NCBI GenBank assembly: GCA_023920165.1 | Contig: CP089280.1 | Location: forward strand, 1,674,001-1,738,000 | Origin: Curvularia clavata | Taxonomy: Eukaryota | Length of the DNA stretch: 64,000 nucleotides | Direction of reading: 5' to 3' | Part shown: piece by piece, positions 13,946-34,845 of the stretch | How the letters are laid out: the number at the start of each line of letters is the position of its first letter | Position numbering within the stretch: the first letter of the stretch is position 1 | The notes under the pieces: model-generated | Told to the model about the DNA's origin: nothing | Seen by the model: only the letters and a program-made list of their open reading frames with translations | Databases searched by the model: none | Translations under genes and position numbers: made by a program

Positions 13946-16900
13946 ATGGCTGAAGAAGACAGCCTCGCCGCCCTCCAGGGCCTCCACCGCGACCTTTGCG
14001 CCCACATCGACCTGCAGCTGCCGGTGCTCGAACGACTGCTGCTGAACCTCGAAGCGCATTTGGAAGAGCTCAAGACACTGCTGGACAAGAAACCGAAGAA
14101 CGACAAGAGCAGACAGGCTCTGGCTTCCGGTAAGTCGCCTGCCAGGCCGTGTGCAGAGATGAGTGCTGACCGCGCCAGGCAAGATCACCATTGACGACAA
14201 CGAGTACGAGGTCAATGATGACTTCAAGCAACAGACGCTCGAACTCGCCGATGCCCTGGATCTCGATGAACTGGATGCCGCCGCTCTCTTCCTCGGTGCC
14301 CAAAGCGAAGCCCGCGAGCTAGACCGCTCCCAGCTGCAGACGGCCGTAATCCGCTTCCACCGCCGCCGCGAGTATGTCCTTTTGTGCGTGCGCATCCTGA
14401 TGAAGACGGCCCTAGACAGCGACGATGCTAAGGTGGAGGGCCTGCCCGTACTGCAGGAGGCTGTCCAGATGATTGTGGGTGTGCACGGCACAACAAACTT
14501 GGCCAACGCATTTGGTTTCTGGGCCAAGTGCTTGACAAGCATGGAGGCAGTAGAGAGGTGGCTGCAATTCATTGCCGAGCGTGTGCAGAGCACTCAGGTC
14601 GTGGGGCAGGTACCGCTGCCGGGCTTCGTGGAGATTATGGATTTCCAGCGCCAGAGTCTGACTAGACAGCACGAGAATCTGGCCGCCATTTGCACCCACA
14701 TGATCAAGCCTGGATACGTCAATCTCGACAACTACAAATCGCTGCTTGCACGCGCCAAGTCACTCGATCGCCATGACCTCAATACAATTCACTACGTCCC
14801 TATCCTTCTCCGACTGACATCCTGGGTCGCCTCCGACAGCAATAATGTCACATTGAGGGAAGCGCGCAACTTGCACGACTCGCTGATGAGCGGGCGTGAA
14901 AGTGACAACTGGTTACTGAGAAATCTCCACGCGGCGACTCTCACGTGGTGGCTGGCTGAGTACAGTGGACGCTACATGGACCCCAATACCCAAGACCCCG
15001 CATTGCAAGGCATCAACTTTGAAGAAGAGGCCAATTCGCGATCTGATGTCTTCCTCAAGGCTCTTGGTGATGGCGCATTCCACTTCATGCTTTCAGTCAG
15101 CCAGGATGTGCGCCCAACGCGCTGGTATGACCCCCAAAAGACGAGCATGTTGTCAACGCTCCTGCAAGACACAGCCGTTCTCAGCCGAGACTCGGTGCAA
15201 CCTGAAGACTTTTTCAAGGAGCTCCTCATGGAGCAGCTGCAAACTTTCGTTGATTCCTTCATCACGCACATGCCGGATACACTACGTAAGCTAAAAGCCG
15301 AGGAAGACGATCAGCGCCGACGACTGCAACTCCACTTCCAGCGGTCGACCGGAGAGTACCCTCTTCATCTGGAACGATTCATGGTCATTGTGGCCTACGC
15401 ATTCGATGGCTTTCCCGATGCCGCCGAAGATTTCTGGAGCGACAAGGAAAGCAATCTGTACGGATTCCTACAATGGGCGGCCAAACGTCAACCTACCCCA
15501 CGGATAGCCATGTTTTGCGAGATGCTCCGAGCCATTGGTACTGGAGAGACAAATGCCGAGGCCGCTCATCGCTTCCTGCTTGAAGAGGGCGCGTCTGCCT
15601 CTGGCAAGATCCGTCGAACGAGCTCGCTAAGTTATACGACCATTTTCAACGAATTGTGCGAGTTCGAAAAGGACATCCACGAGCCGAAGAAGGCCATCCA
15701 AGCCGGAGTCTTTGCTGCCGCAACGAATCCGATAGACCAGATTGTGGAGCCGGAGAGTGCAACTATGCTAGAAAGCTACTTCCGACTCATTTCGCACATA
15801 TGCCGACAAAGCCCCACCGCCCGAAACTGGATACTCGAAGTGAAGGAATATGATTTCGCCAACATCTGCTTCGGTCTCTGCACTGACAAAGTCGAAAGCG
15901 GATTGCGCGCAGCTGCTTTTGACGCGCTCTCCGCCTTGATGGTAGGCAAGGATGCTGCCAGAGCAAATGCAATGTGGACCATGCTTGATGACTGGACGGT
16001 AAACGGCTTTTATACCGGTTCCAAGCAGAATAACACGCTCGGCGCTGCACCGAGGGACGATCTATGGCCTACGCTTGCAGATGGATACGACGAGTCGATT
16101 GCCCTGGTTCGCTTTCTTCATGCGCTAGTGGAACCATACCCCGAGAACGAAGGCCTCAACGACAGCCTGCCGTTCCCTGAAGGCTTAGGCTCTACGCGTA
16201 GAATGCCTGGTATCGAGAGCTATATCGACTTCGTCATGCAACAAGTTTTTGCAGAACGCTCTTTGGATGTACTTGATCCTCTGCAACGCAACGTCATGCG
16301 ATGGACATGTCTGCGTTTCATGGTAATCTGTCTCTCGACATTCAATGAGAACCTCGTCGTCTTTGCGAACAAGTCGAGCATACCCGTTGACGACGTAATT
16401 GATCCTTCGTCCCTCGCCATCTATGTCACGCTCCACCCATTCGCGCGCGTCATGGAGTGGCTGTTCAACGACAAAGTCCTCAAGGCCCTTTTCGCCGCCT
16501 CTCACCACGACGTCACCGAGGTCGATGCTGCCCTTTCAGATTCGCCCTTGATCCAATCTCTCATGTTGAGTATAGAGGTGATGGATCTGGTGATGAAGCT
16601 CCAGGCCACGTATTTGGACATTGTCAGACCAGTCTTGAAGCAGCAAACCACTTTCCAGCATTACCCAGTGTCTAATCTGTCTCTAGCATCGTTCGAGGAC
16701 GCAATCCTAAACAACCTTCAAATTGTTGTTGACCTCGGTCTTTACTGCGGCACAGGTCACGAGGCCTTGACCATTGCATCCCTTCAACTACTTGAGAAGA
16801 TGGCTTCTTCCCGCAAACTTGCAGTATCACCTGCAGGCTTTGGACAGCGATCTGGCCGCAGCAAAATTGTCGGCATCTTGGAGAAGGACAACGAAGCTGA

Positions 16901-19052
16901 GCGCATTGGCCGATCTCTCTCGAGTTTGATGCGATTCAGCGCCGAAGAGCTTGAGGCTGGCGAAGAAGCCTCTGGATACGTTGTCAAGCTTCGCATACTA
17001 GACTTCCTCAACAGCTGTCTGGCTGCTGTATCTCTCCGCCCGACCATTGCTCACATTCTTCTTGGTTTCTCTTGCGGAACAAACACTGTGCGAATTGCCG
17101 ACGACAGTCTGTGGTCCAATGGACAGGCCTTATTCCACAGCATTCTTCTCCTTGGCGTCGAATATCCTGATAACGATGGAGAACAATTCTTGGCCTGGAG
17201 ATCTGCAATCAAAACGCGGTGTTGGCAAGTGCTTCAGAAGTTGTGGCGCTCGCCACTGACCAGTGCGATAATCATGGAGGAGCTGCGTGACAATGAGTTA
17301 CTGTTCATTGAAGCGCCCCAACTTACCCCCATCACCCTCGACATACCCTGGGATGGAATGTCTCTAGCTCAAGGGCTCGAAGTCAACCCTAGCGACTATT
17401 CGGCATTCTTCTCGGGGCCACCGGCACTCGCCCTCCAGAATTTTCTCCAACGACGGGCCGCTTTTCTAGACTATGAGTCAAGGGAACTTCGTTTGACTGT
17501 CAAAGAAAACAGACCAACGATGAAATCGAGGATCCAGTCACTGCTTCTTGGCACTACCATAAGACCTGGCGAAGACGCTACGCCAAATCCCAACATTTTT
17601 GACTTGTTCGACTTCATAGAGTTGGTCTACCCAGAACGCGCTCTTCCAGATCAACACAGGTTCTTTGAAGGCGTGAATCTTGAATCATGTCAAGAAGACA
17701 AGGAGGGCTGTACTCTGTACTCGATACCATTGCTAGAACAAGTCATCCGCTTGAAGTTGAAGTACTGGAGAAAAGATGGCTTGCTGAAGGAGGAGGAGCA
17801 CGAAATAGCGCTCGCGGAACAGGCTGAGCTCTTGATGGCCATATTCGTGGACTGGAACCGTCGTACTCAGCTGATGCGCTACCATAAGGACATCCTTCAG
17901 TCATGGGTCCAGGTTGTGATGGTAGCCGTGCACAACTGCGATTTTGACAACGGGGCACGAAGCTCCTTCATCCTACAGACCTTGCAAGTCATTCTTCCGA
18001 AGCTTGAACAGTCATATGCCGCGGATATATTCACCGCTCTACAACTCGCCAGCCTCGCAGAGTCTCTCATTCAGAAAGTTGACTTTGAGTCTACAGCCTT
18101 CGACAAAACTGGTGACTTTGCCAATGACCGACTATCGCAGCTCTTCCGTGCTGCACTCCTGGGCATCTACAGCCCAGTTTCTACACCTGAACTGCGGGAG
18201 TACTGCTACCAGATTTGCTTCCGTTACATACATGGTACTTCCCAAAAGGCTACTCCAAACTCTGTTCTTGGCCGCCACACACTCAACGCGATCAGGAACT
18301 GCGGTAGCCATATGCTCGAAGTGATTTGCGACGATGCTTACAGCGGCCAAGGAACATGCAAGGTTTCCGCGCTCCTTCTTCTCAATGCATTCGTAGCAGT
18401 TGCAACTCGCCAGTCGTCAAAGTACATTCTCGAAAGCTTTGTTTCTCTCAACTTTGTCGGTGTACTTGTCGACAACATCAAGCACATTCCAGAGGAACTC
18501 CGCACAGCTATCGCATCGCAAGTGACCGTTCTCCTCTCATACTACGACGCTAGCCTTGCGCTCCTTCTCCGTATATGTCAGTCTCGTCTGGGAGCAGCGC
18601 ACGTGCTCAATGCAGGCCTCTTCCCAGCTATCCGCGAGTCTCATATCTTCTCCGTCGATCCAGACATTGGTCTCGAATTCGACGACCCAAATGCTTTACG
18701 CAAGTACTACCAGCTTATGTTGGCCGTACTACGTGTTATCAACGCTGCGGTTATCGCCAGGGGACGGCAAAATGATCAGACTGTGTTCCAGGCAAGGGAG
18801 TTCCTGAAGGACAACAGACACAGCATGGTCAGCGTCTTCAAGAGAAGTGTCAACGTCGGAGTCGGAGCAGGCGAAGAGATGCAACAGGACCTGGTAGACT
18901 TGGTGGATTGCTGGACGGTGTTGGTTGACGTGACTGGGTTCTTGCAGGTAAGCCATCGACATGACGGTGAAATTGTTCGACATGGAACTAATGTATTGCA
19001 GTACGAAGATGAGTCTAGTTTGAAGAGGGCGAGGCCGAGCATGTTCTCATAA
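13946..19052 (+). CDS. NUP192: Nucleoporin Nup192/Nup205 family
   Basis: ATG 13946 (MAEEDSLAALQGLHRDL), intron ~14130-14178, then a long helical ORF with YEVNDDFKQQTLELADALDLDELDAA and TLHPFARVMEWLFN, typical of fungal Nup192. A final short intron precedes YEDESSLKRARPSMFS*. Confidence 0.9.
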
Positions 19053-19786: not shown

Positions 19787-21668
19787 TTACCCGTCTTCAT
19801 CTTCGTTCCTCCATATTGATGCCGAATTATAATCAGAGGATTGCACTAAATCCACTAGATCGTTATGGATCTCCTCATTGCTCTGAGAAGACTGAGTGAT
19901 GTCGGTAATCTTTACTGGGGAGCTGACTGGTTCGGCAGAAGAGCTAGGGGCTTCGTCATTGAAGACATCAGATCTACGCTTCAAAGGGGAACCTTGTGGG
20001 CTTGATCCAGATTCGACACGAGCCCTCTTTTTCGCTAATGAACCTTTTGGACGGCCTCTCGGTCGCTTTAGTATAGCATTGTCATCGCGCGCTGGAGAAA
20101 TAGGATCTGTGTTTGACCTTGGAGGAGTGCTCAAGCTACTCTTTAACGAGCCACCAATTGGTTTAGCCCAGTCGAGAATTTGTCTGATCTTCCGACTAGG
20201 CTGATCAACGGTGGTGGAGGGACTCGGGTTCAAAGTTTCTATGATAGCTGCCTGTGTGGCTTCAAATACCATAACCTCATCATCAAACTCGGTCGCTTGT
20301 TCTTCAGGCAAAGATTTTGGGTCTTCCTTTGGTTTCATGAGACCCTTGCGATGCAGGATTTGTCTAGGGCCAGATCCCTCTGCTTGACCTGATCTGTCGG
20401 CGTCGTCACTGCTCTTCCTCTTTCCAGGCCTTTTTGGAAAATCACCACTTTCCACTCTGGCGCGCAGCTCGTCCGTAGAAGGAAATGCTCTGGTGGCGGC
20501 CCACTCAGGGAGCTTGCTAGCGAAATTTTTCCACATTGCACGTTGTGACACTGCGATTGGTGCAGGACACTTGTAAAAATCCGTCCGATGATTCGCATTA
20601 TCCAAACCAGCTTCTATGCAGTTCAGGCAACGAAAGAGGGTCTTGTCATATCGATTTGGGCACTGTGAAGTTGCTCCTGGACCTGGATGCTTTTGGGCAC
20701 AAACGATGCATGGCCAACTCTCTTCTTTAGATAAGTTGGCGTTGGGGCACTTTGTGTATTCTAGCGTGTGATCCGGACGACCACATCTTAGGCAGAACTG
20801 AGGCGTGCCTCGAGGGTCGTACGCCCTAGACTCAGTCAGTATGCCAGTTGTGTGTGTGTGTGTGTGTGTGTGTGTCAGGCTAGACTCACATTGCTAATGC
20901 ATGGTCGCCCGAAAAGAAAAGAGGCTGCTGACAGGCCTTCATAGCCTCACCAGGGTCCATAAATCCCCACAAGAACCTCTGTTGTGTGTACTTGACCTCG
21001 TTGATATCGAGGCCAGTATCACGCTTCATCGAAGCAAGGTAGTCCTTGCAGTTCTTAAGGTACTCATTGGCCAAATTGTATTCGTTTAGTATAACCCAAT
21101 ACATTTCGGGCTTGCGTTTTGAGTGCCATGGTGTAAGGCCGAGCTTTACCATCAAAGTAGCAAAATTGTTGTCTTGAATCAGTTGCTCATAGATCGGGCG
21201 CGACTGGGTAGTAAGATGCAGTTCTTTCGTGTGATGATACACTCGGACGGATGTTATCTGGTTATATGGTTCGCTCAGCGATCTCAACCTCTTCAGAACT
21301 CCTTCAGGTCCTAAATCCGAAATTTTAGGAAAGTCCTTCTCACCAAGTACGATGCTGATCCTGGGAAGAATGGCTTTCAGTGCGCGGGTTGGTGCCGGGT
21401 TCGGGTCGCGTTCTAGGCTTTTGGAGATTTTCTTTAATCGATTTACTTCTTCAGTCATGGTGTTCATAGCTTTGTTGAGCTGAGCTGCAATTGCGGCTGA
21501 TAGCTCTTTCAGCTTCGCCTCGATTACTCGCTCGACTGCTTGTTCCAAACCCTGTTGGACAAGAATCTCTGGGTGTAATGCGTTTCCAACATGTTGTTGG
21601 GAACAGGTATTCGGGGTTTAGTCTGCGGTGTGGCTTGTAGAAGCGGAAGATTTGTCTGGGAGATTCAT
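19787..21668 (-). CDS. Spliced LINE ORF1/gag-like protein: coiled coil, three CCHC-type zinc knuckles, AT-hook; in-frame TAA at codon 17 if ATG 21668 is used, alternative ATG 21467
   Basis: ORF 21548-20886 joins the downstream frame through intron 20889-20826 (GTGAGT...ACTGAC...CTAG). This gives AMAYDPRGTPQF-CLRCGRPDHTLEYTKC...CIVCAQKHPGPGATSQC...CLNCIEAGLDNANHRTDFYKCP, in frame with ORF 20605-19787, which contains KRPRGRPKGS. Confidence 0.8.
20849..20875. repeat. (GT)n microsatellite inside the intron of the gag-like gene
   Basis: Uninterrupted TG dinucleotide run. Confidence 0.95.
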
Positions 21669-23165: not shown

Positions 23166-23357
23166 ATGTCACATAATTCATTCGCATACGGGCCCATCCA
23201 GCGATTTCTGACCAGCATGACAGAGACTTCACAACAGCAAACACGAGAGAAAGAATATACTTGCAACAAGGGGAAGGGACCCAGCAGCAACAGCAATGAT
23301 AAGGGAAAAACGAAGAAGAAGAAGAAGAAGAAGAAGAAGAAGAAGAAGAAGAAGAAG

Positions 23358-23388
<31 letters not shown>

Positions 23389-26300
23389 CTCGGGTGAGCT
23401 GAGGCTGCTGTCTCATCCTAACGTATGTGGGTTGACTGATGTTTGTTTAGAAGCCAGAGCCCCTCGCAAAGGTCAGTATTTGCTACAATCCAGCTTTCTC
23501 TGTTGAATGATTAATAGAAAATTGACCCAGGGCAATCTCAAGTTCATGCGAAACCAGTTGACTCTGAAAAACGCAAACTTGGGCCGGGACGAAAATGGCT
23601 AGCTGATTTGCAGCCAGGTCACTCCCTGAAGACAGAGGTTCTAGAGGACGGACAATGCTTTCTCGTATCGGTCCAAATGAGATCTGCCAAACCGCGCCTC
23701 CAAAGCCTCTTCAACTGGGTAAAGACACTGTCTAGACCGCCCGATGTTATCGCCATCCAGGATCCTCCTTTGCAGCTCGCTTATAGCTCCTTGCCATCGT
23801 ACCAGACATGGTTTCGCGGAGACGACGGCGAAGGTAATCCTGTTAGCATCGGAGAGAAAGATCACCCTTATCACTGCGACTATATTCCCCCGTACCCGAA
23901 AGCTCATGAAAAGCTGGCTATGAAGCAGCACTCTAAGACCCAGCCGGACGGGTGTAAGCAGCTGGCCAAAATTGCGTTTTTGGTGCATAGTTCCATCCAG
24001 GAATGGAATGTTTCTGAGCCTTCGCACGGCCCCAATCGAGGCTTGGTCGCAACATTGCATATTGCCCTCGCCCGAGGTTCACTCAACATCCACAACTTCT
24101 ACAATCACAATCACCCAAATGGGCGGCTAGACGTCGAGGAACTTTTGAAGCCCTGCGGCAACAATCAAGATGCCCATATAGTCGTTGGTGACAGCAACCT
24201 ACAACACCCTCTCTGGAGTCCTCACGCCGAAGGACAGAATGCTCATAAAAAGGCCAAAGATCTCGTAGCAGCAATGGAGGCCACGAATATGGTATGCAAG
24301 AACGATGGCTCCCTTACCTTCGCTCGTGGCAATCGCAGCGGTGGTGAATATGCATCTTCGATCGACATCATCTTGGCAAGCGGGTTCCTGGGTGACCAAT
24401 CCTGCTACGAAGTCCTCGATGTCCACGGGTACGAAAGCGACCATGCTGTCACTTCGTTGAAAGTCGACATGGATCTAGACCGCAAAATGGGCCTAAAGTT
24501 CTTCTGGGATGAGACTAATGAAGCATTGTATAGCAGAGATGTGGCTCACCATGTCAATACGTTGGCTCTTCCCTCAAATCCCAACAGGGCCGACTTAACG
24601 CACGCGCTGGAGGGTTTTCGAAAGATCATCTATGGAGCAATCGAGAAACATGTACCCGTCCGGCATGTTTTCGAAAACACTCATGCCAAAAAGTCTACTA
24701 TGTCTATCTCTAGCGCCATAAGGACGGCAAATTGGCGGAGGGCTGTAGAGCGCAAATCGGAGGACCCTCAAGGCGTTCATTCTTTAGCTAAAAGAGCTAT
24801 CCTATGGGGCTCGCCAAGACCGCCAAAATGTACTCCGGATTTTGTACCAGCTCCAGACAAAGTAATCACGGACAACAACGAGAAGGTGAAATGTTACGTG
24901 GAGGCGATTTGGACTCGCACCAGGTACAAAGGCCCCCCCAGAAAACTGCCAACCGATAGCGCCTTTTCAAAAAGATATGTAAGTACACTCAGGCACCGTT
25001 AATTCAATATTTGGTGTCACTGCCAGCTGAATGAAAACAGGCTACGGTTGACAGTAGCGGGACGACTCACACAGCCCAAACGCATACTTCCTCCACGGAT
25101 ACATCTCAATTTCCGTTGCCGTTTCTTCATCCATCTAGGAAACAGCATTTCTCTGATATAAAAGTAGAAGAGGGCGAGGTCGCAAGCCTACTGAAAGGCG
25201 CACCACATCGCAAGGCTTGTGGAGATGATGGTATTCCGTTTGAAGCATTGAAAATGTGTGCCAAGGTCATAATACCTACCCTGACTTGGATCTTTCAAAC
25301 GTGCCTTGATCTGCGCTTACATCCCGACAGTTTCAAGGACTGCATTACCTTCGTCATCCAAAAGCCTGGAAAGGATGCATCACTGCCTAAATCTTACAGG
25401 CCGATCGCGGTTCTGAACACACTGGCAAAACTTCTGGAGCGTATAATAGCTGATCGATTAAAGGCACTTGTTCTTGAAGTGGAAGGTATGCTTCCGTTCA
25501 CACAGTTTGGTGCACCAGGTCGTAGTACGACTCTTGCTGTAGAGTTGTTGACTACGAAAGTTTACAGCGGGTGGATACAAGACAAGAAGGCCAGTCTCCT
25601 TGGTCTCGATCTCACTGGTGCGTATGATCACATCGACCGTATAAAATTACTAGATAAACTAATATCGCTTGGCATACCTGACTGGCTGATCGAGATTATA
25701 TGGTCTTTTTTGTCTAATCGCCGCAGCTATATTCACCTTCCTGGTTACGACGGTGAGGAGTACTATATAGACGTTGGCGTTCCTCAGGGGAGTCCACTCT
25801 CTTCGCTCCTGTTCTTGTTCTATGCGGCGCCCCTGCTGGAGCACTTGGCTAAGGACTATGCTGCCGCAACGCTCTTTTCTTACGTTGATGATACCTATAT
25901 CCTCGTAGTCACGTACTCATACCGCGAAAACATCCGCGTTATGGGTGTCATCCACGACCGGCTTTACAACTGGGCAGAGCAGAACGGCATGCGCTTTTCA
26001 CCCACCAAGTATCATATCATGCACTTTGTTAAGCCGTGCACGCGTGTTGACGAAGCTGGTTGCGAGTTACTGCCTTCTATGATTGGTTTCGAGAATTTGA
26101 CTCAAGACGAAAAAGATAACATTCTACAACCGACCATGACTATCCTTGGAGTAGTGTTCGACCAACGACTCTCTTGGGTTGATCATGCAAACTATGTAAG
26201 CCGCAAACCATACCACCCATCATTTACTTACGTATCAACAGATTGTAGGGAAGATTAGGAAGAAGCTGAAGACCTATCAACGCTTTTCTCGGTCAACATG

Positions 26301-27342
26301 GGGCATCACAGTACAAAAACGATACAACCTTTATCATCAACACCTCCTTCCGATCGTTACCTACGCATGCGCCGGCTGGTTTCTCACTGATCCACCGAAC
26401 GAAAAGCGTCATGGGAAACTGAGTTATGGAATTTCCAAATCCGCCATCGATACTCTGGAATCCCTCCAAACAGAGATCCTTCTTTTCCTCTCGAAAGCTT
26501 GGAAACGAACCCCTAGGCAATTAATTGAGAACGAAATGCACATCAGACCGATTGTCTTGAAGCTACATGAGGTCGCAATGAATCACCGTTGCAGAAAACT
26601 GGACTCAAACGAGCATGAGTTTATGCGAAAGACTAGAGGTTTTTGCGAAGTAAAAGGACAAAGAAAGCACCCTCATGACCAAATGGACCGGGTGGTAAGG
26701 AATTATGTGCGCCAAATCTGGGATTACAAGTCGCTTCATTTCGGAGAGGCAGACTGTGAGCGATGTTGGGCAAAACCAGCAACGCGGAAAAAGTGGATCA
26801 AAGATTTCTTCGACCTCGAGCTCTTCGTGGAAGCCAAGGCACAGTTCACCTTCTGGTTACATGTTCAAGCAATCCCGCGTTCAGCAGTTTGGAAGTTCGC
26901 ACAGCCAGCATACCAAGCCAATTACGGCGAGCATACTTTGCATCTGTATTTTGGTTTGGATACCGCCCAGCAAACAATGCTTTTGGGTATGCGCACTGGG
27001 AATCTCGGTGTCAATGCTAATCCAGTCTTCCGCAACGCCATAAAAAGCAAGAACATGAGCTGCCCAAAGTGCGGAGCAACTCTCCATACTGTCAAACATC
27101 TCTTATGCGAGTGTCCGGCTCTAAGCAGGGCGAGGACATATTTGACGGGAGCCGCTGGACACAACGATTTCAACTTGTTCATGAATCGCGATACTGAGCT
27201 CGCGACATCATGGGCCATTGCGCACTTTGGTCTGTCGCAGTTCGATTCGGTCAAGAACAAAAAGAAATACCAATTTCCTCAAAAGCCAAAGGTTGTGCGT
27301 GACGGGATTTTACTAGATGAGAGACAAGGACTCGCCACGTAG
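23166..27342 (+). CDS. Five-exon non-LTR-type APE endonuclease-reverse transcriptase-CCHC protein (~1321 aa)
   Basis: Exons 23166-23393, 23451-23471, 23518-24978, 25041-26195 and 26242-27342. All four introns are GT-AG and phase 0, and splicing gives one open frame. APE motifs DVIAIQDP, HNFYN, VVGDSNLQHPLW, SSIDII, ESDH; RT motifs YRPIAVLNTLAKLLE, LDLTGAYD, GVPQGSPLS, YVDD; thumb STWG...LY...PIVTYACAGW; C-terminal CPKCGATLHTVKHLLCECP. Confidence 0.92.
23313..23387 (+). repeat. (AAG)25 trinucleotide repeat encoding poly-lysine in exon 1 of the RT gene
   Basis: 75 nt of perfect AAG in frame with ATG 23166, ending two codons before donor GTGAGC at 23394. Confidence 0.9.
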
Positions 27343-27636
27343 CATTAATACTATCCTGTTGTCATATCCGGCTTCGGCCTTTTGCGAAACATTTTGAGAA
27401 ACACTTTGGGTTTCATTTTTTATATTTGAATCAAACTTAACGAATACAGTTCGTAAGTATGCTAAGGTAGGTGTTTTTCGAACCGTTTAATGGCTGACTG
27501 CTGTTAGAGACCCAGCCTCCGCAACGCTACATCGGTAAGGAGACGTCTGGTAAGTGAATCGTACCCAGCTGGTCTATAAGGTATACAAGGGAAGACTAAC
27601 GACTATGCAGTCCGTCGTACCCTGCGATTTTATCAG

Positions 27637-28366
27637 TTAACAGGAATTGAAAGGCATGTCGTCCAACCTCTCCCTTACGTCCACCATCTCAACATCCTCC
27701 ATCTCCATGTCGCCGTCCCCATCCACGTCACCATCGTCGTCGCCATCGCCGTCCATGTCTACCTCCGCGTCCGTGTCCGTGTCGTCGTCCGACCGGCGTA
27801 GTCTCGACCGGATGAAATAGAGCGTTGCACCCATCCAAGCCACGCTTTTGTATGTTGATACTTTATCGATTCCACTGAAATATGCAAATATTGACTACTG
27901 CAGCGGATGCCATAACGCTGCCTCCATGTCCATGCACCCATCTGCGATAGCCTTCCTGATCTCATGGGTGTTGTATCCCAGCCATAACCAAACGTCCGGA
28001 GCAGGCAGCCTTGCCGTGTTCTTCTCAATCAACCGGTAGCTGAAGTCGTAAATTCGTAAGAATCATAGCTAAGAACTAGGGTCTATCAAGTATAATAATG
28101 AGATTGATAGTTGATGCGTCTTGCCTATTGATGAGCGCGATCTCCCGGCCTCGCGACTGTCGCAGCTGTATTATATCCACCTGGCATGTATGGCATAGAA
28201 TATAGTCGTCATTGTCGGGCATAGTCGTATCCAGAAAGTTGAGCCATTCAAAGAGCCACTTCTGTAGCTCTGTAGCAACTTTACTTGAGAGCGGCTCATA
28301 GAGAGCAGGCCGGGCGTCCAAAGAGAGAGTGACGGGGACTACCCGTTGTCCGGAGAGATTGGACAT
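27637..28366 (-). pseudogene. Possible degenerate small gene of unknown function
   Basis: Protein-like stretches MSNLSGQRVVPVTLSLD...QKWLFEWLNFL and YRLIEKNTARLPAPDVWLWLGY...HPLQ*SIFAYF...WMGATLYFIRSRL with an acidic tail. They are broken by stops and a frame change, and I found no clean splice solution. Confidence 0.3.
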
Positions 28367-29403
28367 GGTTGGTGTGTAGGATTCCTTTACATTTGTGCAC
28401 TTGTTAACGATTCTAACTTCAGATCTGAATTTGAAGAAGACTGAAGAAAGAGATGGGATGAGCTGAGTGTGCGATGCCGTCGATGGATTTTGCCGAGCTG
28501 GAGATTGAGTGTAAGGGTTATTTTCTGTAGGATCGCTAAGAGTGCTGACTTTCAAAGTCACAAGAGCAGAAGAGCAGGTATTTGTAGGCAGTGTGCGCTG
28601 CTCTGATGCTATGGTAAAGGATCACCAATTTGCTTTTGCACCAACCATTTACTTACAATGAATAGTGTCCTCATCACAACCACGGTTCGACAACTTCAGG
28701 GTTTTCTCTGCCCGTTGTTGGCCGCCCAATGGGCTTCTGCCCATTGGAGTGTAAGTTCATTTATTATTTGTCAACCCACCGATGAAGTGCATACTTATAT
28801 TGTCCAGTATTGTTGTTGTTCTGATTTGGATCTGTACCACATTTTGGATTCGACACGTGAAGCCGAAGGCACTGGAGCCTGAGGCACGGGAGCTTGAGTA
28901 AGTATCCGAAACTCTAGACAGCCTCCCCTATTCATACTGAGATCTATACAGGGCCTCGCGTTCGAATCCCCCCTTGGACATAGTCCTTTTTTGAATTTTT
29001 GAATTTTGGTGGGCTGAGGGGCGGCCTGCCTTTGTTTTGAGACCACTTTTTGATGTTGGCCAATCGCCACAGGCGAGCCAGTTATGAGAAACAAAAACAG
29101 AAATAAATAACCACGGGCCCCTCCCGTGAAAAGAAAACTCCTCACCTCTTCCCTATGCAGTTTCATGCGTGAAATGTTGATGCCTATGCCAAGCCACAGT
29201 GTACCATGGATAGCTTTACTAGTACCCCGCCTGGTCAATATGTGGCCCCAGCATCATCATAAATACTCTCTTCCTGTATTGTCTTCGGCCCATCACTATG
29301 ATACTCACGACTTTAATTCAAATCCGGACAATCCTATCGAGCCATTGAGATCTTCCTAGTTCAACCGGCAATCCTTCGAGGACGCTGCACACCTTCACCG
29401 AGC

Positions 29404-30885
29404 ATGTCGCCATTATTTCGACTACCACGAGAGCTACGAGATATCATTTACGACTTCTATATCCGCTGTGACGGCGGCTACGTGTATAACGCAGAGACCC
29501 AAAAATTCAGGAGGGCTGATGGGGATCCGATTTCCTGTGCACTAGCCCTCACCTGTCGACAAGCTGCGTCTGAGCTGGAAGGACTGGCTTTTCAAGTGAA
29601 CCCAATCACATTCTCGTCTACTCCTATTAGCTCTTTGCGTGAGCAGGTGGCGCTACATCATGAAGTAGCTTGCGCATTCGCCGAAAATGGTTATTTTTTG
29701 ATCTCTCAAACAGGCCGCTTTTTGGTGACGCAAGAGATGCGTGAACGAGTAGCAGAGGCCTATCCCCAATTCGCACCATACCTCGAGATTTGGTTGAAAG
29801 AAAGGGTCCTCGGAGACCGTTGGGGTTGGGAATGGGACTATACTGTTGGTGAAGCTCGATCTATCTGGTGCGATTTTCAGCGGTTCCTAGCGCAGCTTAT
29901 CTCAAGGCACCCAGCCTTGCACGAGACGATCAAGGCTTTACCCGCAAACTCAGGCATTTATATGCCTTCTGTCGATTTGCTACAACGTGATGATATAAAC
30001 TTCGAGCCCTGGCGCATCTACGACAAAACCGAGCTTGAGCGTTTGTCAAACATGCTGTCTTTCTGCCCAATACCCTGGGGTCGGATTCATCCTGAAACGA
30101 AGCTCACATATTCCGCTGCTTCAACAGCTCTTCAGTTTCTCAATAAATGCACCAGGAAGGTCCGAAAACATATTCGCAAAATCATTTTGATCGAGAACAA
30201 GGTTTTAACTGGGAGGTCCGAGAGCTATGGCCGTGGCTTTATACCATTTTGTCGGGAAAACAGATGTCTACATGTGGAACGCCGGGTAAACCTCTGGAGA
30301 ACGGTATTCGGACCTACTTCTGGAGACCAGGCTACTTATACCTTTGGCTGGACTGAGTGGGACGCTAGGCAATTCAAGAACGAACGTCTACGGGCTAGAG
30401 ATGTCACACGGTCAGTTGGAAAATGGATGACTGAGGCTTTGGCATTACCTTCGCTAGGAATGCCCGAGGAATCGTACACCCTTGTCTTCGATGGCAATCC
30501 AGTACCGGAACTGTCTTCGAAGGTCTTCCGCATAATCCAGCGGGATGCCGCCTGGCAAGCTGCGCTTGACGCCTGTTATTCTCGCGGTTTGTTTCCAGAG
30601 GTTTCTTGGCAAATCGGCCGTCGGCAAAACAAGTGCTACCAATTTGAGGGATTACCGGAAGTAATGCAGATGCTCCTGACCGGCAGTAGCTCTCTAATCC
30701 AATGCAATTTTGATCTCGGTGCACCATACGACGTCGAACAGATTCTTGAAGACCATCGCGGTTGGGATTGGGCAACATGGTCTGAATCATGGTCATCACA
30801 CGAGCCGAGCACTTTCCAAACGGAACCGCCATTGCCGCCATGGCATAAGTGGTGTTGGAAGCAATATTACGGTTATTATGATTAG
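29404..30885 (+). CDS. Intronless fungal hypothetical protein with an N-terminal F-box-like motif
   Basis: 493-aa ORF starting MSPLFRLPRELRDIIYDFY, followed by ALALTCRQ. This pattern is typical of expanded ascomycete-specific families; function unknown. Confidence 0.8.
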   Translation: MSPLFRLPRELRDIIYDFYIRCDGGYVYNAETQKFRRADGDPISCALALTCRQAASELEGLAFQVNPITFSSTPISSLREQVALHHEVACAFAENGYFLISQTGRFLVTQEMRERVAEAYPQFAPYLEIWLKERVLGDRWGWEWDYTVGEARSIWCDFQRFLAQLISRHPALHETIKALPANSGIYMPSVDLLQRDDINFEPWRIYDKTELERLSNMLSFCPIPWGRIHPETKLTYSAASTALQFLNKCTRKVRKHIRKIILIENKVLTGRSESYGRGFIPFCRENRCLHVERRVNLWRTVFGPTSGDQATYTFGWTEWDARQFKNERLRARDVTRSVGKWMTEALALPSLGMPEESYTLVFDGNPVPELSSKVFRIIQRDAAWQAALDACYSRGLFPEVSWQIGRRQNKCYQFEGLPEVMQMLLTGSSSLIQCNFDLGAPYDVEQILEDHRGWDWATWSESWSSHEPSTFQTEPPLPPWHKWCWKQYYGYYD

Positions 30886-31679
30886 TTTTCTTTTATCGCT
30901 TGGTCTGGGAATCTGGATTGGGTGGCTTCCAGCAATGTGGCTCTTTATTTGCGGTGACTTATATCAGCCCTAGAATCTAGATAGGAGGATTTAATCTGCT
31001 GAGTTCACATTTTCTTTGCTTATTCCCAAAACTCAAATCATTACCCTCCTGGAGCCAATGCTAGGAGCGACAGAATTCGTCTGGTCAGCAAAACATCCCA
31101 TTGGAGGATGGCTGCATCTCATGCAGTACGATTACATCGACAAATATTTATTTCATGTAGCGCATAATAACAGACTATATTTTACTGAGCGCGCAATGTA
31201 GTGAGAATAACACCGTTGTGTTAACATAAACGGATAATCATGCCGAAACAGTTCGACAGATTCGTCTACACAGGCTCACGTCATTGGTTTTGATGTAGAT
31301 TGTGACAGTAGATTTAGGTCTGCAGTCAATGTGTATGATAATGAGATTGATATGCAAGCAGTAAAATTCAATGTGCTCGTATCCCCTGGCGAAGAGCGCA
31401 GGACATGGCATTGATCTGCAGCCCGAGATTTGGCATATATATTGTCTGACCAAGGTTGTTGCACGGGAGGATATAGTGCCAGAACAAACCACAAAATTCT
31501 AAGTCCGGGCGTGAGAGGTAGTGTTGGACTGGTGACATGACATGGCACGTGCACCGTGTCGTGTTGCGTCGTGTCATGTCGCGTCGTGCCGCCTCGTATC
31601 ACGTCACGAGTGGAAAACCAATATTCCCTCCGTAGCTGGCTTCTTAATACTGAAGCATTAGATCTCTGCACATCTCACA

Positions 31680-32620
31680 ATGCACTCTGAAGAATTCCCG
31701 GGTTTCGAGCTGGTCAGTACCGACGGCAGTTTACTCGACAATGGAAAGGCGACGGCTGTTGCTGGCACAGGCGTTTACTTTGGTCCCAACGACCACAGGT
31801 GAGCACTGTTCTGTCCGACCATGCCATCACGCTCCACTCCTAACCAGCACGTATGTAGAAACTATAGCGAGCCTTTGGGACCAGGCCCGCAGACCAACCA
31901 ACGTGCGGAGCTCAAAGGCGTCTTGAAGGTGTTGCAAATACTGCCCGTCACACAGAATGTGCTAATTGAATCTGATTCTACATATGCTATCATGTGCGTG
32001 ACAGAATGGTATCCCAAGTGGGAGTTGAAAAGCTGGCAGAAGTTCGAAGGCAAGAAGTACAACAACATGGATCTAATCAAGCGCACTGTTCAGTTGTTAG
32101 AAAAGCGCGACGCAATAGGTACCAAAACCTATTTTCGTTGGGTCAAGGGTCACTCGGGCAATCCAGGCAATGAAGCGGCTGACAAGCTGGCTGGTGAAGG
32201 AGCACGGTATGTTTTACAATTGCCATAAACTTGACTAGAATTGAGTGCCAACACAAGCATACCAGGCGCGAACACGTACGACTCTACGGCGAACCCCAAG
32301 AGAAGAGACCTCAGAAGAAGAACCCACAGTTTATTCAGTCTGGCGTCCCATTCGGCTACAAGGTAGTAAGACTTCCAAATGGGCAAGAAGATCTAGAGCG
32401 TGATCAAAACCAAGTAGACAGGTACATACAAGACGGAAAGGCGAGAGCAGAAGAGAGAAAGAGGAAGTGGAAGAAGGTCTCGGAGAATAGACGTTGTAGG
32501 GGAGGAAGTGCAGCACAGCGGGTGGCAATCAAGGCAGCCAAAGCAAACAAAGCTTCCAAGGCGGACCACGAAGAAGCAACTCCAGATCCAGCATCAAATA
32601 ATACCACAGTATACTCCTAG
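31680..32620 (+). CDS. Stand-alone ribonuclease H (RNase HI-type catalytic domain) with a probable basic C-terminal extension
   Basis: ATG 31680; exon 1 VSTDGSLLDNG...GTGVYFGPNDH; intron 31799-31858; then NYSEPLGPGPQTNQRAEL, IESDSTYA, WVKGHSGNPGNEAADKLA (D-E-D-H-D set intact). A 32-nt GTATGT...CTAG intron (32207-32238) would add ORF 32240-32620 in frame; otherwise the gene stops at 32228. Confidence 0.9.
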
Positions 32621-32877
32621 TGTGCAAACATCCATTGATTCATCCATTCCGGTTTTGCGTTTTACGTCCAGAGGCTCGGTTCTCAACACTTCAGGTTCGT
32701 CAGTAGAAATGACTCCCAAATGCGACACACAAGGAACCTAAGCTACAGGATTGAGTTTTCGTGCTATTCTTCACTTCTGTAATACAAATCATATGAATAG
32801 GCTAGTTATGTCCAGATAGTCAAAACAACTAAAACTGAGTGCAATTCCATTAATCTCCCTCTATTCTAAACCCAAAT

Positions 32878-34845
32878 CTATACTTCTAATAAGCTCTTCA
32901 CTTCCTTGACCAGCAGCCGATCCTCAGCTGCCGTTGCTTGAACATTACCCATAGTACCCGCTGCGTCCATGACCCTCCATAGGTCTCTCAGCTCACCGTT
33001 CATATCAGCCCCATACACCAGCCATCCAACGCTGATGACACCCATCTTCTTGTTGTCGCTCCACTGCTCTTCAGTGCTGATGTTTTCGAGCAGCGAAGCG
33101 AGAAGCTCTACCTGCTCGGCATCTGGAAGTTCAGACTCTGAAGGCAAAGAAGGCGAGGTGTTGGCCGTGTACTTCTTCATCCGTATTTGATGGTTGGAAG
33201 AGGTGATGTTCATTGCCAAGTTGAGCGCCGAGGCCTTGAGCGCGGGGTGTTTCTCATCGAGAAGGGCCGTGGTCAGGATTGAGATCAGAGTCGATGAGAC
33301 GGGCGGCGAAAGAAGGTGTGGTATGAAGAGAGGCGAAGAAAAAAGGTTACATGCGAGATGCAAGGTCGTGAGTCGGAGGGGATATGGCGCGCTATCACCC
33401 AGTTTGTCTACGTGGTCTAGTAGATGGTGTACCGTGGCCGGTGTGCCCGTCGCACCTTTGTGCTCTTCTGCGAAGAACCCAGCGACACGGGCATCGGTAA
33501 GAGAAATTCTAAGCAGATCCAGGGCAGTGAACAGAAGCTCGGTTGGGAGTACCGTTGTACTTTTCCTCAAAAATTCGGCAAATTTCGGGAGTTCAGTAAG
33601 CGGAGCCTCAATAGCTCCTGATTTCTCGCGGACCTGGATGTAAGATACAATGGCTGAAACGGCAGGGTCGTTTCCGCTGTCTCCCATCTTCGCAACCAGC
33701 TTGTCCAATGGTGGTACCTTGGTAAATCTGATAGGTCTTTGGCTCTGCCGCATGAGCAAAGGTGTGCTTTTGTCCAGATGCGGGTGCGGGGGGAATGCCG
33801 TATTGAGCAGCATCTCTACGTTGCTACGGAGCTGCCTGGGGTCGGCTCCACTCCATTCGTCTCTTTTCTCGCCCTTGAGGTAAGTGATGAAGGTCGGCGT
33901 CGCACGAACGTTGGGATAGCGACTATTGATCGAGCCCTCTGCGTGGCTGAAATCAATTTTGATGAAGACACACTTTGCTCCTGCTTCAGCAGCAAGTTCG
34001 TCGTATGGCTGGTATACAAGCTTGCAAGGAGCACATGTTGAGCTTGTGAAGAATATGATAGCGCAACGGTCCTTGGCGAGGCCCAGCAAGCGATCCAAGT
34101 CTGTTAGTGCCGTGATGTTGTTAACCTTGCCGGTGCTCATCTCTATTTCAGTCATATTACGGTTGGAGGAAGCTGCTGCTGTCGTTCCGTTCGTAGTACT
34201 CCCACCAGAAGGTTGTACTTGGCCCGCCTGAGGTGTAGGTGCCTGTACAATGGGTCTCATCGCGGCATCAATCTGTGGTTTCAGCATTTGGCCAAATGGT
34301 GTGTTGAGAACAGTTTGCGGGAGAGAGGTAATGTGATCTGGTATTCCCTTGCCAACAAGGAACATGGCGAAATCGTTGGAGAAGTTGTTGCAGTTATGCG
34401 CGAATAGATCGTATGACTGCATCTGTGTTAATTCATGTATTTGAAATCTTTATCCAAATTCACTTACCTCGGGTGTATATATCTTCTTCAGGGACTCTAG
34501 ATACTCTAGGATCACTTCCATGGGAAGCGCAGTCTGCCCAAGCTTGATGATTTCCATAGGCCGTCCATGATGGGTCTGCCCCGCTCTACACGTCTGCACT
34601 CCTTGTCCAAAGTAATACTCTATGCCACCAAAGACGATGGAGGTGTGGTATACGGCATCGATTTGTATTCCAAGGAACGACTGAGACATGCTCTTCGCAA
34701 GACCCTAACAACATTAGAACCAGTTTTCTATGACACGCTTGCACAGTAGCAGCGATGCGCTTTTCGGGATCAAGAGATCAGATTATGCCACTTTATGACA
34801 GGCACTTACTTGGGAAAGGTCATACACGTATAGTTCTACGTCCAT
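32878..34845 (-). CDS. PPPDE/DeSI desumoylating isopeptidase fused to thioredoxin-like and PUL domains
   Basis: Spliced MDVELYVYDLSQ-GLAKSMSQSFLG...YHTSIV (catalytic His)...YDLFAHNCNNFS (catalytic Cys); thioredoxin-like TCAPC...ATPTF; helical PUL-like C-terminus. Confidence 0.9.

Follow-up and report, generated by a model that had tools for sequence, protein, structure and literature searches.

A tailed RNase H1 paralogue beside a LINE-derived reverse transcriptase gene in Curvularia clavata

The RNase H gene at positions 31680 to 32620 (plus strand) of the 64,000-nucleotide stretch of Curvularia clavata DNA analyzed here (the window) is, judging from its sequence, a Pleosporales-specific duplicate of the host RNase H1 gene (RNH1) and not the domain of a LINE or LTR element. 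The reading that we prefer, with a probability of roughly 0.55, is that it encodes a dispensable hybrid nuclease, which would share a fast-changing pocket of the chromosome with a domesticated LINE. This 13.8-kb pocket is anchored on the left by NUP192 (14163..19052, plus strand) and on the right by a DeSI (PPPDE)-thioredoxin-PUL gene (32878..34809, minus strand; hereafter DeSI). The gene order in the window is TEL1/ATM, NUP192, the pocket, DeSI-thioredoxin-PUL, GH79, a P450 gene, GDA1, and others. GDA1, which is 11 kb from DeSI in the window, is also found near DeSI in distant fungi (loci L016, L029, L038, L039, L044, and L045), an old neighborhood.

The RNase H gene consists of three exons (31680-31798, 31859-32206, and 32266-32620) that encode 273 aa, a catalytic domain followed by a basic tail. 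The RNA evidence comes from contigs of four runs (X8, X12, X13, and X22) belonging to three studies, for which the RNA status was guessed or unrecorded but splicing is visible. Intron 1 (31799..31858, 60 nt) and intron 2 (32207..32265, 59 nt) were removed in all four runs. A preliminary description of this DNA had placed a 32-nt intron at 32207-32238; the RNA contigs of 4/4 runs show 32207-32265 instead and, since they skip 59 nt, exclude both the 32-nt and a 51-nt version. The 32-nt and 59-nt acceptors share a frame, so the tail is the one first described, minus nine extra residues. The protein matches PF00075 (E 1.1e-25; 90.9 bits against a curated cut-off of 25.8), and the motifs GVYFGP, QTNQRAEL, and SDSTYAIMCVTEW were all found. 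The catalytic residues D15, E57, D79, H138, and D148, read from the gene model, are complete, and exon 2 can be aligned with E. coli RNase HI. The RNA splicing, the PF00075 match, and these five residues bear out the earlier claim of a spliced RNase H with a full catalytic set. As was also described, the gene lies 4.3 kb downstream of a reverse transcriptase (RT) gene, the stop codon of which is at 27342; it is a separate spliced gene, with no fusion to the RT polyprotein. The RNase H and DeSI transcripts are convergent (window 32620-32878) and a single X13 contig covers both, so that their 3′ ends may overlap.

An in-frame stop is found immediately 5′ of the RNase H ATG, the RNA contigs begin at 31618 and 31648, and no upstream splice joint to the gene is among the joints listed for the RNA contigs. 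Taken together, these observations indicate a protein without an N-terminal hybrid-binding domain, as the preliminary description had proposed; PF01693 was absent from the 5′ sequence, the Pfam results, and the RNA contigs. The basic C-terminal tail predicted from the letters alone is encoded by exon 3 (32266..32620) and consists of 116 aa with 25 K/R against 16 D/E and a pI of 9.85. Homologous tails are found in the A. panax protein P0029 (E 4.6e-12) and in L031 (E 1.4e-5), a locus whose DeSI is 98% identical to that of A. alternata. Intron 2 is typical of the clade of RNase H proteins discussed below: the signature of read-through at its donor was detected in 6/16 clade proteins against 1/69 others, and the donor is identical in L031.

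Identity, intron 1, and the tree all agree with the original assignment of the gene as an RNase H1 paralogue of host type. Six host-type RNase H proteins show 48-55% identity to the protein, while the best match to two LINE RNase H domains was 23 residues long and to one domain only. At the position of intron 1, 12 of the 142 RNase H gene calls from outside the clade carry an intron-like insertion and 25 start there; a 13th insertion was not intron-like. Host RNH1 genes thus appear to have an intron at this place too, and a common position suggests that RNH1 was duplicated at the genomic level. In a quick tree with 171 rows, 29 rows that have no hybrid-binding motifs formed a group (SH-aLRT 86). 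In a more careful tree of 48 rows, with clade rows chosen from the quick tree, frameshifted, gapped, and near-identical rows omitted, and a bootstrap that had not fully settled, a 20-row RNase H clade (support 96/98) stood apart from 23 host rows and from a retroelement sample made up of two LINE domains and no LTR domain. Having its own 20-row clade, the gene is not orthologous to the housekeeping RNH1, and neither by identity nor in the tree does it group with retroelement RNase H domains.

Among the matches listed, all clade members with a species name are from Pleosporales (Alternaria, Ascochyta, Cucurbitaria, and one unclassified Pleosporales). PF01693 was found in 0/23 clade proteins and in 5/5 controls; most clade rows are gene calls of exon 2 only, so the missing domain carries information only for the window and five full-length models. 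For the A. ethzedia orthologue, the nearest Atlas structure belongs to an ascomycete RNase H1 cluster, and the Atlas feature search returned only generic RNase H clusters (0.89). A subfamily resembling this clade was not found in a literature search screened at the level of titles. The window protein thus has the D-E-D-H-D catalytic domain, the 48-55% identity, and the intron 1 position of fungal and metazoan RNase H1 (RNH1; PF01693 plus PF00075), but differs from it in having no hybrid-binding domain or long linker and in its added intron and basic C-terminal tail. It also differs in being of a type that is confined to Pleosporales among the named matches, evolves fast, and is often broken. 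Similarly to the RNase H of non-LTR retrotransposons (Tad-CgT, PMC4427930; aRNH of plant and oomycete L1, PMC5348765), it lies near an APE-RT gene and could plausibly take part in removing the RNA template; unlike the captured domains described there, it is a separate, spliced gene of host RNH1 type, 4.3 kb off with two genes between, and not fused to ORF2.

The preliminary description stated that its proposal would fail if this were a housekeeping gene lying next to DeSI in relatives without the RT. The gene does lie next to DeSI in relatives, one of which (L003) has no RT in the complete DeSI-NUP192 interval, but by its sequence it is not a housekeeping gene, being fast-evolving and often broken. 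Five named Bipolaris DeSI proteins share 88-89% identity with that of the window and at least 95% with one another, which points to the window probably coming from a related genus of Pleosporaceae; identity to those of Alternaria and Pyrenophora is about 81%. The accessions of RNase H and DeSI follow one another directly in A. panax (KAG9191374/375) and in Alternaria ethzedia (J4E87_007570/007569), where the adjoining RNase H is intact. The assemblies suggest that both are also on one contig in a B. sorokiniana-like fungus (DeSI identical to the B. sorokiniana protein), in Pyrenophora (a 7158-bp contig), and in Cucurbitaria. In Ascochyta lentis, the RNase H (EKO04_006354) is unlinked to DeSI (EKO04_001904).

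With DeSI as the anchor, we gathered 51 DeSI loci; 12 were Pleosporales-like and included the DeSI 3′ end, and 5/12 extended at least 2 kb downstream. RNase H was beside DeSI in two of these five. In L031 it has kept both intron donors but contains two in-frame stops, and in the Alternaria-like L003 it is truncated to the last half of the domain and lies amid three copies of the 493-aa family described below. The complete DeSI-NUP192 interval of L003 contains no RT and no ORF1. Neither RNase H nor RT was found within 2.9, 10, and 5.3 kb of DeSI in L004, L011, and L012, respectively, and the RT was absent from all 51 loci. Other broken copies are those of the B. sorokiniana-like contig, which has a frameshift, and of the A. 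panax model; the frameshifted models are P0005/P0166 and P0029. The RNase H core is 50-68% identical where DeSI retains 75-88%. Moreover, the differences listed between run X22 and the window are 4 synonymous and 6 non-synonymous for RNase H, against 13 and 2 for DeSI (p 0.028); 5/6 of the listed amino-acid changes in RNase H are in the tail and not in the core. The lower core identity and the non-synonymous excess both point to relaxed constraint on the RNase H.

The RT gene (23531..27342, plus strand) is LINE ORF2-like and encodes an APE endonuclease, an RT, and a CCHC knuckle. After removal of three introns (23472-23530, 24979-25040, and 26196-26241) at least 1233 aa are open, with YVDD intact, a start codon that is not fixed, and a poly(A)-like end near 27366. 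This productive combination is in no single RNA contig, and X13 and X12 retain 24979-25040. A further, frame-shifting intron of 65 nt with a weak donor (25266-25330) was removed in X22 and retained in X8; once it is removed, the protein stops after the endonuclease, and the choice may be a switch between EN-only and EN-RT products. A long GAA run is present at the 5′ end of the gene (window 23313-23387). Between X22 and the window there are 8 differences in about 3665 bases of the RT (23529-27366), compared with 12/689 in RNase H and 24/1558 in DeSI (31857-34416); the RT may have undergone a recent sweep or introgression. Head-to-head with the RT is an ORF1/gag-like gene (19787..21617, minus strand) with three Cys/His knuckles and a predicted intron (20889-20826), the removal of which gives about 587 codons; a CA run is found inside this intron, at about 20850-20880. 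The Atlas lead for this gene, 'Gag family protein', scored 0.88, under the 0.9 bar.

The full-length identity of the RT falls with host distance, from 55-60% in B. maydis, where the models are gapped and one is flagged as low quality, to 51% in A. dauci, 43% in P. teres, 39% in P. nodorum, and 31% in Fusarium; relatives were found in Colletotrichum and Trichoderma as well. In P. teres, the RT is three to five gene numbers from DeSI (HRS9139_00979/00984, PTMSG1_03077/03074, and HRS9122_00272/00268), and in P. nodorum it is 47 (SNOG_16000/16047). Where the window has intron 26196, a read-through of 16 residues distinguishes the P. nodorum RT models from one another, an intron that is thus held in common. 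Being spliced and near DeSI in Pyrenophora, the RT is an old resident and not a recent insertion, and with the ORF1-like gene it probably represents a domesticated LINE-derived family. No relatives of the RT were found among viral contigs, and the family was not found in the literature search, screened by title. A survey of host-TE fusions with 417 RVT_1 candidates (PMC10799480) does not seem to name it, and the supplements may list it.

The RT shares with Tad-like fungal LINEs an APE endonuclease, YVDD, a C-terminal CCHC knuckle, and a nearby ORF1-like knuckle protein; the clade name Tad-like is a putative one here. It is not a typical mobile element of this kind, since it is spliced, has kept its neighborhood in P. 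teres, and has its ORF1-like gene on the opposite strand. The spliceosomal introns, the fixed chromosomal place, and the lack of flanking repeats (around the pocket we found none beyond the GAA run and short chance pairs) set it apart, as does the endonuclease motif QDP, the usual form being QEP. Like the fungal cellular rvt genes, it bears introns, is immobile, and lies among host genes, but it has an APE endonuclease and a CCHC knuckle, neither of which we know of in rvt.

The RT has no RNase H of its own, as the preliminary description had stated. No PF00075 was detected in it by Pfam, and the comparison of the RT-family profile with an RNase H profile by hhalign gave a probability of 0.1%. 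The last exon (366 aa), as modeled by AlphaFold (pLDDT 86), contains helices only, with no strand of three or more residues. A hidden or degenerate RNase H is excluded by the profile comparison and this all-helical predicted fold. Foldseek found no match to the C-terminal part at E 0.001 or better, R2 proteins coming first at E 0.16. Of 37 RT relatives, 35 are without PF00075 and two carry RNase H. Since host RNase H often serves non-LTR elements (PMC5348765), although Tad-clade LINEs (Tad-CgT) can carry one in ORF2 (PMC4427930), this lack is ordinary and needs no special partner.

RNase H and RT are nonetheless old neighbors. The window has an intact copy of each, and the same four runs contain transcripts of both. 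Pyrenophora has a full-length RT and an RNase H with exon 2 intact, with the RT as close to DeSI in the three P. teres comparisons as in the window and the RNase H and DeSI apparently on the same 7158-bp contig. The two genes diverge at similarly fast rates, and they seem to decay together: L003 combines an absent RT with a truncated RNase H, and in Bipolaris both look damaged, in different species (RT in B. maydis, RNase H in the B. sorokiniana-like contig). These observations favor a dedicated partnership, in which the ORF1-like protein, the RT, and the RNase H would form one immobile reverse-transcription module and the RNase H would clear RNA from the RT cDNA in trans. We consider such a module possible but on balance unlikely. 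Intact RNase H catalytic sets are present in A. ethzedia, A. hordeiaustralica, and A. lentis, where there is no RT among the named matches listed. Conversely, P. nodorum, Fusarium, Colletotrichum, and Trichoderma have RT relatives but no RNase H clade member among the named matches listed, and the P. nodorum RT is far from DeSI. The RT search scored 8000 candidates of 675-2000 aa, and absences refer to representative sequences among the matches listed. The 35/37 RT relatives that lack RNase H include those of Sordariomycetes, and the host enzyme on which non-LTR RTs often rely (PMC5348765) makes a dedicated one less needed.

Because L003 spans DeSI to NUP192 without an RT, RT relatives occur in Sordariomycetes without a named clade member, and the A. 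lentis copy is unlinked to DeSI, the RNase H does not seem tied to the RT. The apparent coincidence of RNase H and RT loss in L003 and Bipolaris counts against this loose reading. Of the earlier proposal of a paralogue recruited to serve the RT in trans, the host-type paralogue has held, and its linkage to the RT is old, as seen in P. teres; recruitment for the RT is a weaker possibility.

It is rather doubtful that the gene is simply a duplicate in decay that, although still transcribed, has no role at present and is kept by DeSI through its position alone. The RNase H is broken in both of the fetched loci that hold it, the models P0005/P0166 and P0029 are frameshifted, and amino-acid changes are in excess among the X22 differences listed. 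However, the catalytic motifs have been retained at about 50% overall divergence across several families, intron 2 and the homologous tail are conserved, and the window copy is intact and spliced in 4/4 runs; in addition, the listed X22 changes spare the core almost entirely (5/6 in the tail).

Two further regions separate the RT from the RNase H. A spliced RNA of 826 nt (27689..28777, plus strand) contains no long sense ORF. Its five GT-AG introns (27850-27903, 28056-28110, 28368-28422, 28511-28557, and 28614-28665) were all removed in X12 and two each in X22 and X13, and X8 has a contig that is unspliced across the first; the depth is low and the contigs carry no strand. Stop-free codons in the spliced RNA number at most 72 in sense and 239 in antisense. 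On the minus strand, a coding-like ORF (27637..28366), 206 codons long from an ATG at 28366, becomes continuous only when two of the plus-strand introns, 28056-28110 and 27850-27903, have been taken out. The 256 codons of the antisense stretch over 27600-28800 were matched by 15/5000 random excisions and 16/3000 Markov controls, in a test devised after the ORF had been noticed. With a coding model trained on eight exons of the window, the ORF scored +0.4, compared with -2.3 to +4.7 for seven other genes and -7 to -13 for two intergenic stretches. Its frame scores best in each of its three pieces, and without the acidic tail it scores -1.3, equaled by 0/50 intergenic windows. Only weak minus-strand donors could restore the ORF. 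Its pieces have no Pfam or NCBIfam match above cut-off, the ORF has no match among the fetched loci or proteins, and its first exon has no relative among viral contigs. Loose-ended contigs at 28567-29094, with a depth of up to 165, show that a related expressed sequence exists elsewhere in the genome; no second copy is found within the window. The other region is a 493-aa ORF (29404..30885, plus strand) of an unnamed family with no Pfam or NCBIfam match and an N-terminal motif that we take to be F-box-like; X22 gives it no coverage, to which we attach no weight. The family, of about 500 aa, is often near DeSI in relatives and clusters around it in Pleosporaceae (L001, L002, and L005, with three copies in L003).

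The antisense layout would suit a gene completed by splicing and reverse transcription. More plainly, there may be a gene on the minus strand whose introns are non-canonical, or a dead gene that a spliced antisense RNA overlaps. It is improbable, if conceivable, that the NUP192-DeSI pocket is a cellular reverse-transcription system, self-contained, in which ORF1 and RT would copy the 826-nt RNA, the tailed RNase H would remove the RNA, and the intron-free cDNA would encode a 206-aa antisense protein that is not intact in the genome. In that case the ORF would be a natural antisense-intron cassette, comparable in a eukaryote to the hidden genes that bacteria make by reverse transcription. In engineered retrotransposition indicator cassettes, the reporter ORF contains an antisense intron, and bacterial DRT2/neo genes are hidden genes. 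The layout at 27637-28366 resembles both in that the ORF is complete only in a reverse-transcribed copy of the processed RNA; it differs in being known from sequence and RNA contigs alone, with non-canonical minus-strand introns possible. Such a layout was not found in the literature search, screened by title. Finally, an origin of the RNase H within the RT element, as a domain detached from ORF2, is hardly credible: Tad-clade LINEs can have one there (PMC4427930) and two of the 37 RT matches do, but the window protein falls in with host RNH1 and a long way from both LINE domains, and the position of intron 1 is common to its gene and to host RNH1 genes.

The preferred reading, a dispensable hybrid nuclease, would run as follows. 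A host RNH1 gene was duplicated genomically in Pleosporales, and the duplicate lost its N-terminal hybrid-binding domains and acquired a basic C-terminal tail behind a new intron, as the sequence, the tree, and the RNA show. The product is most likely a metal-dependent nuclease cutting the RNA strand of RNA:DNA hybrids, and the tail may stand in for the lost domain in nucleic-acid binding or nuclear import. The gene inhabits the fast-changing NUP192-DeSI pocket together with the domesticated LINE-derived ORF1/ORF2 pair. Dispensable and often lost, it may act on hybrids of the RT as any nuclear RNase H would, without being an obligatory partner.

This analysis identifies an RNase H1 subfamily of Pleosporales in which a tail takes the place of the hybrid-binding domain. 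It also identifies an RT gene of LINE origin whose introns and chromosomal place have been retained across genera. If RNase H and RT cooperate, a domesticated LINE would have regained RNase H as a separate, host-derived gene. This would bear on an open question, as the reason why some non-LTR elements carry RNase H has been called enigmatic (PMC5348765). The antisense ORF, if finished by splicing and reverse transcription, would give the RT and the RNase H a job, and fungi would then hold genes that are invisible to genome annotation.
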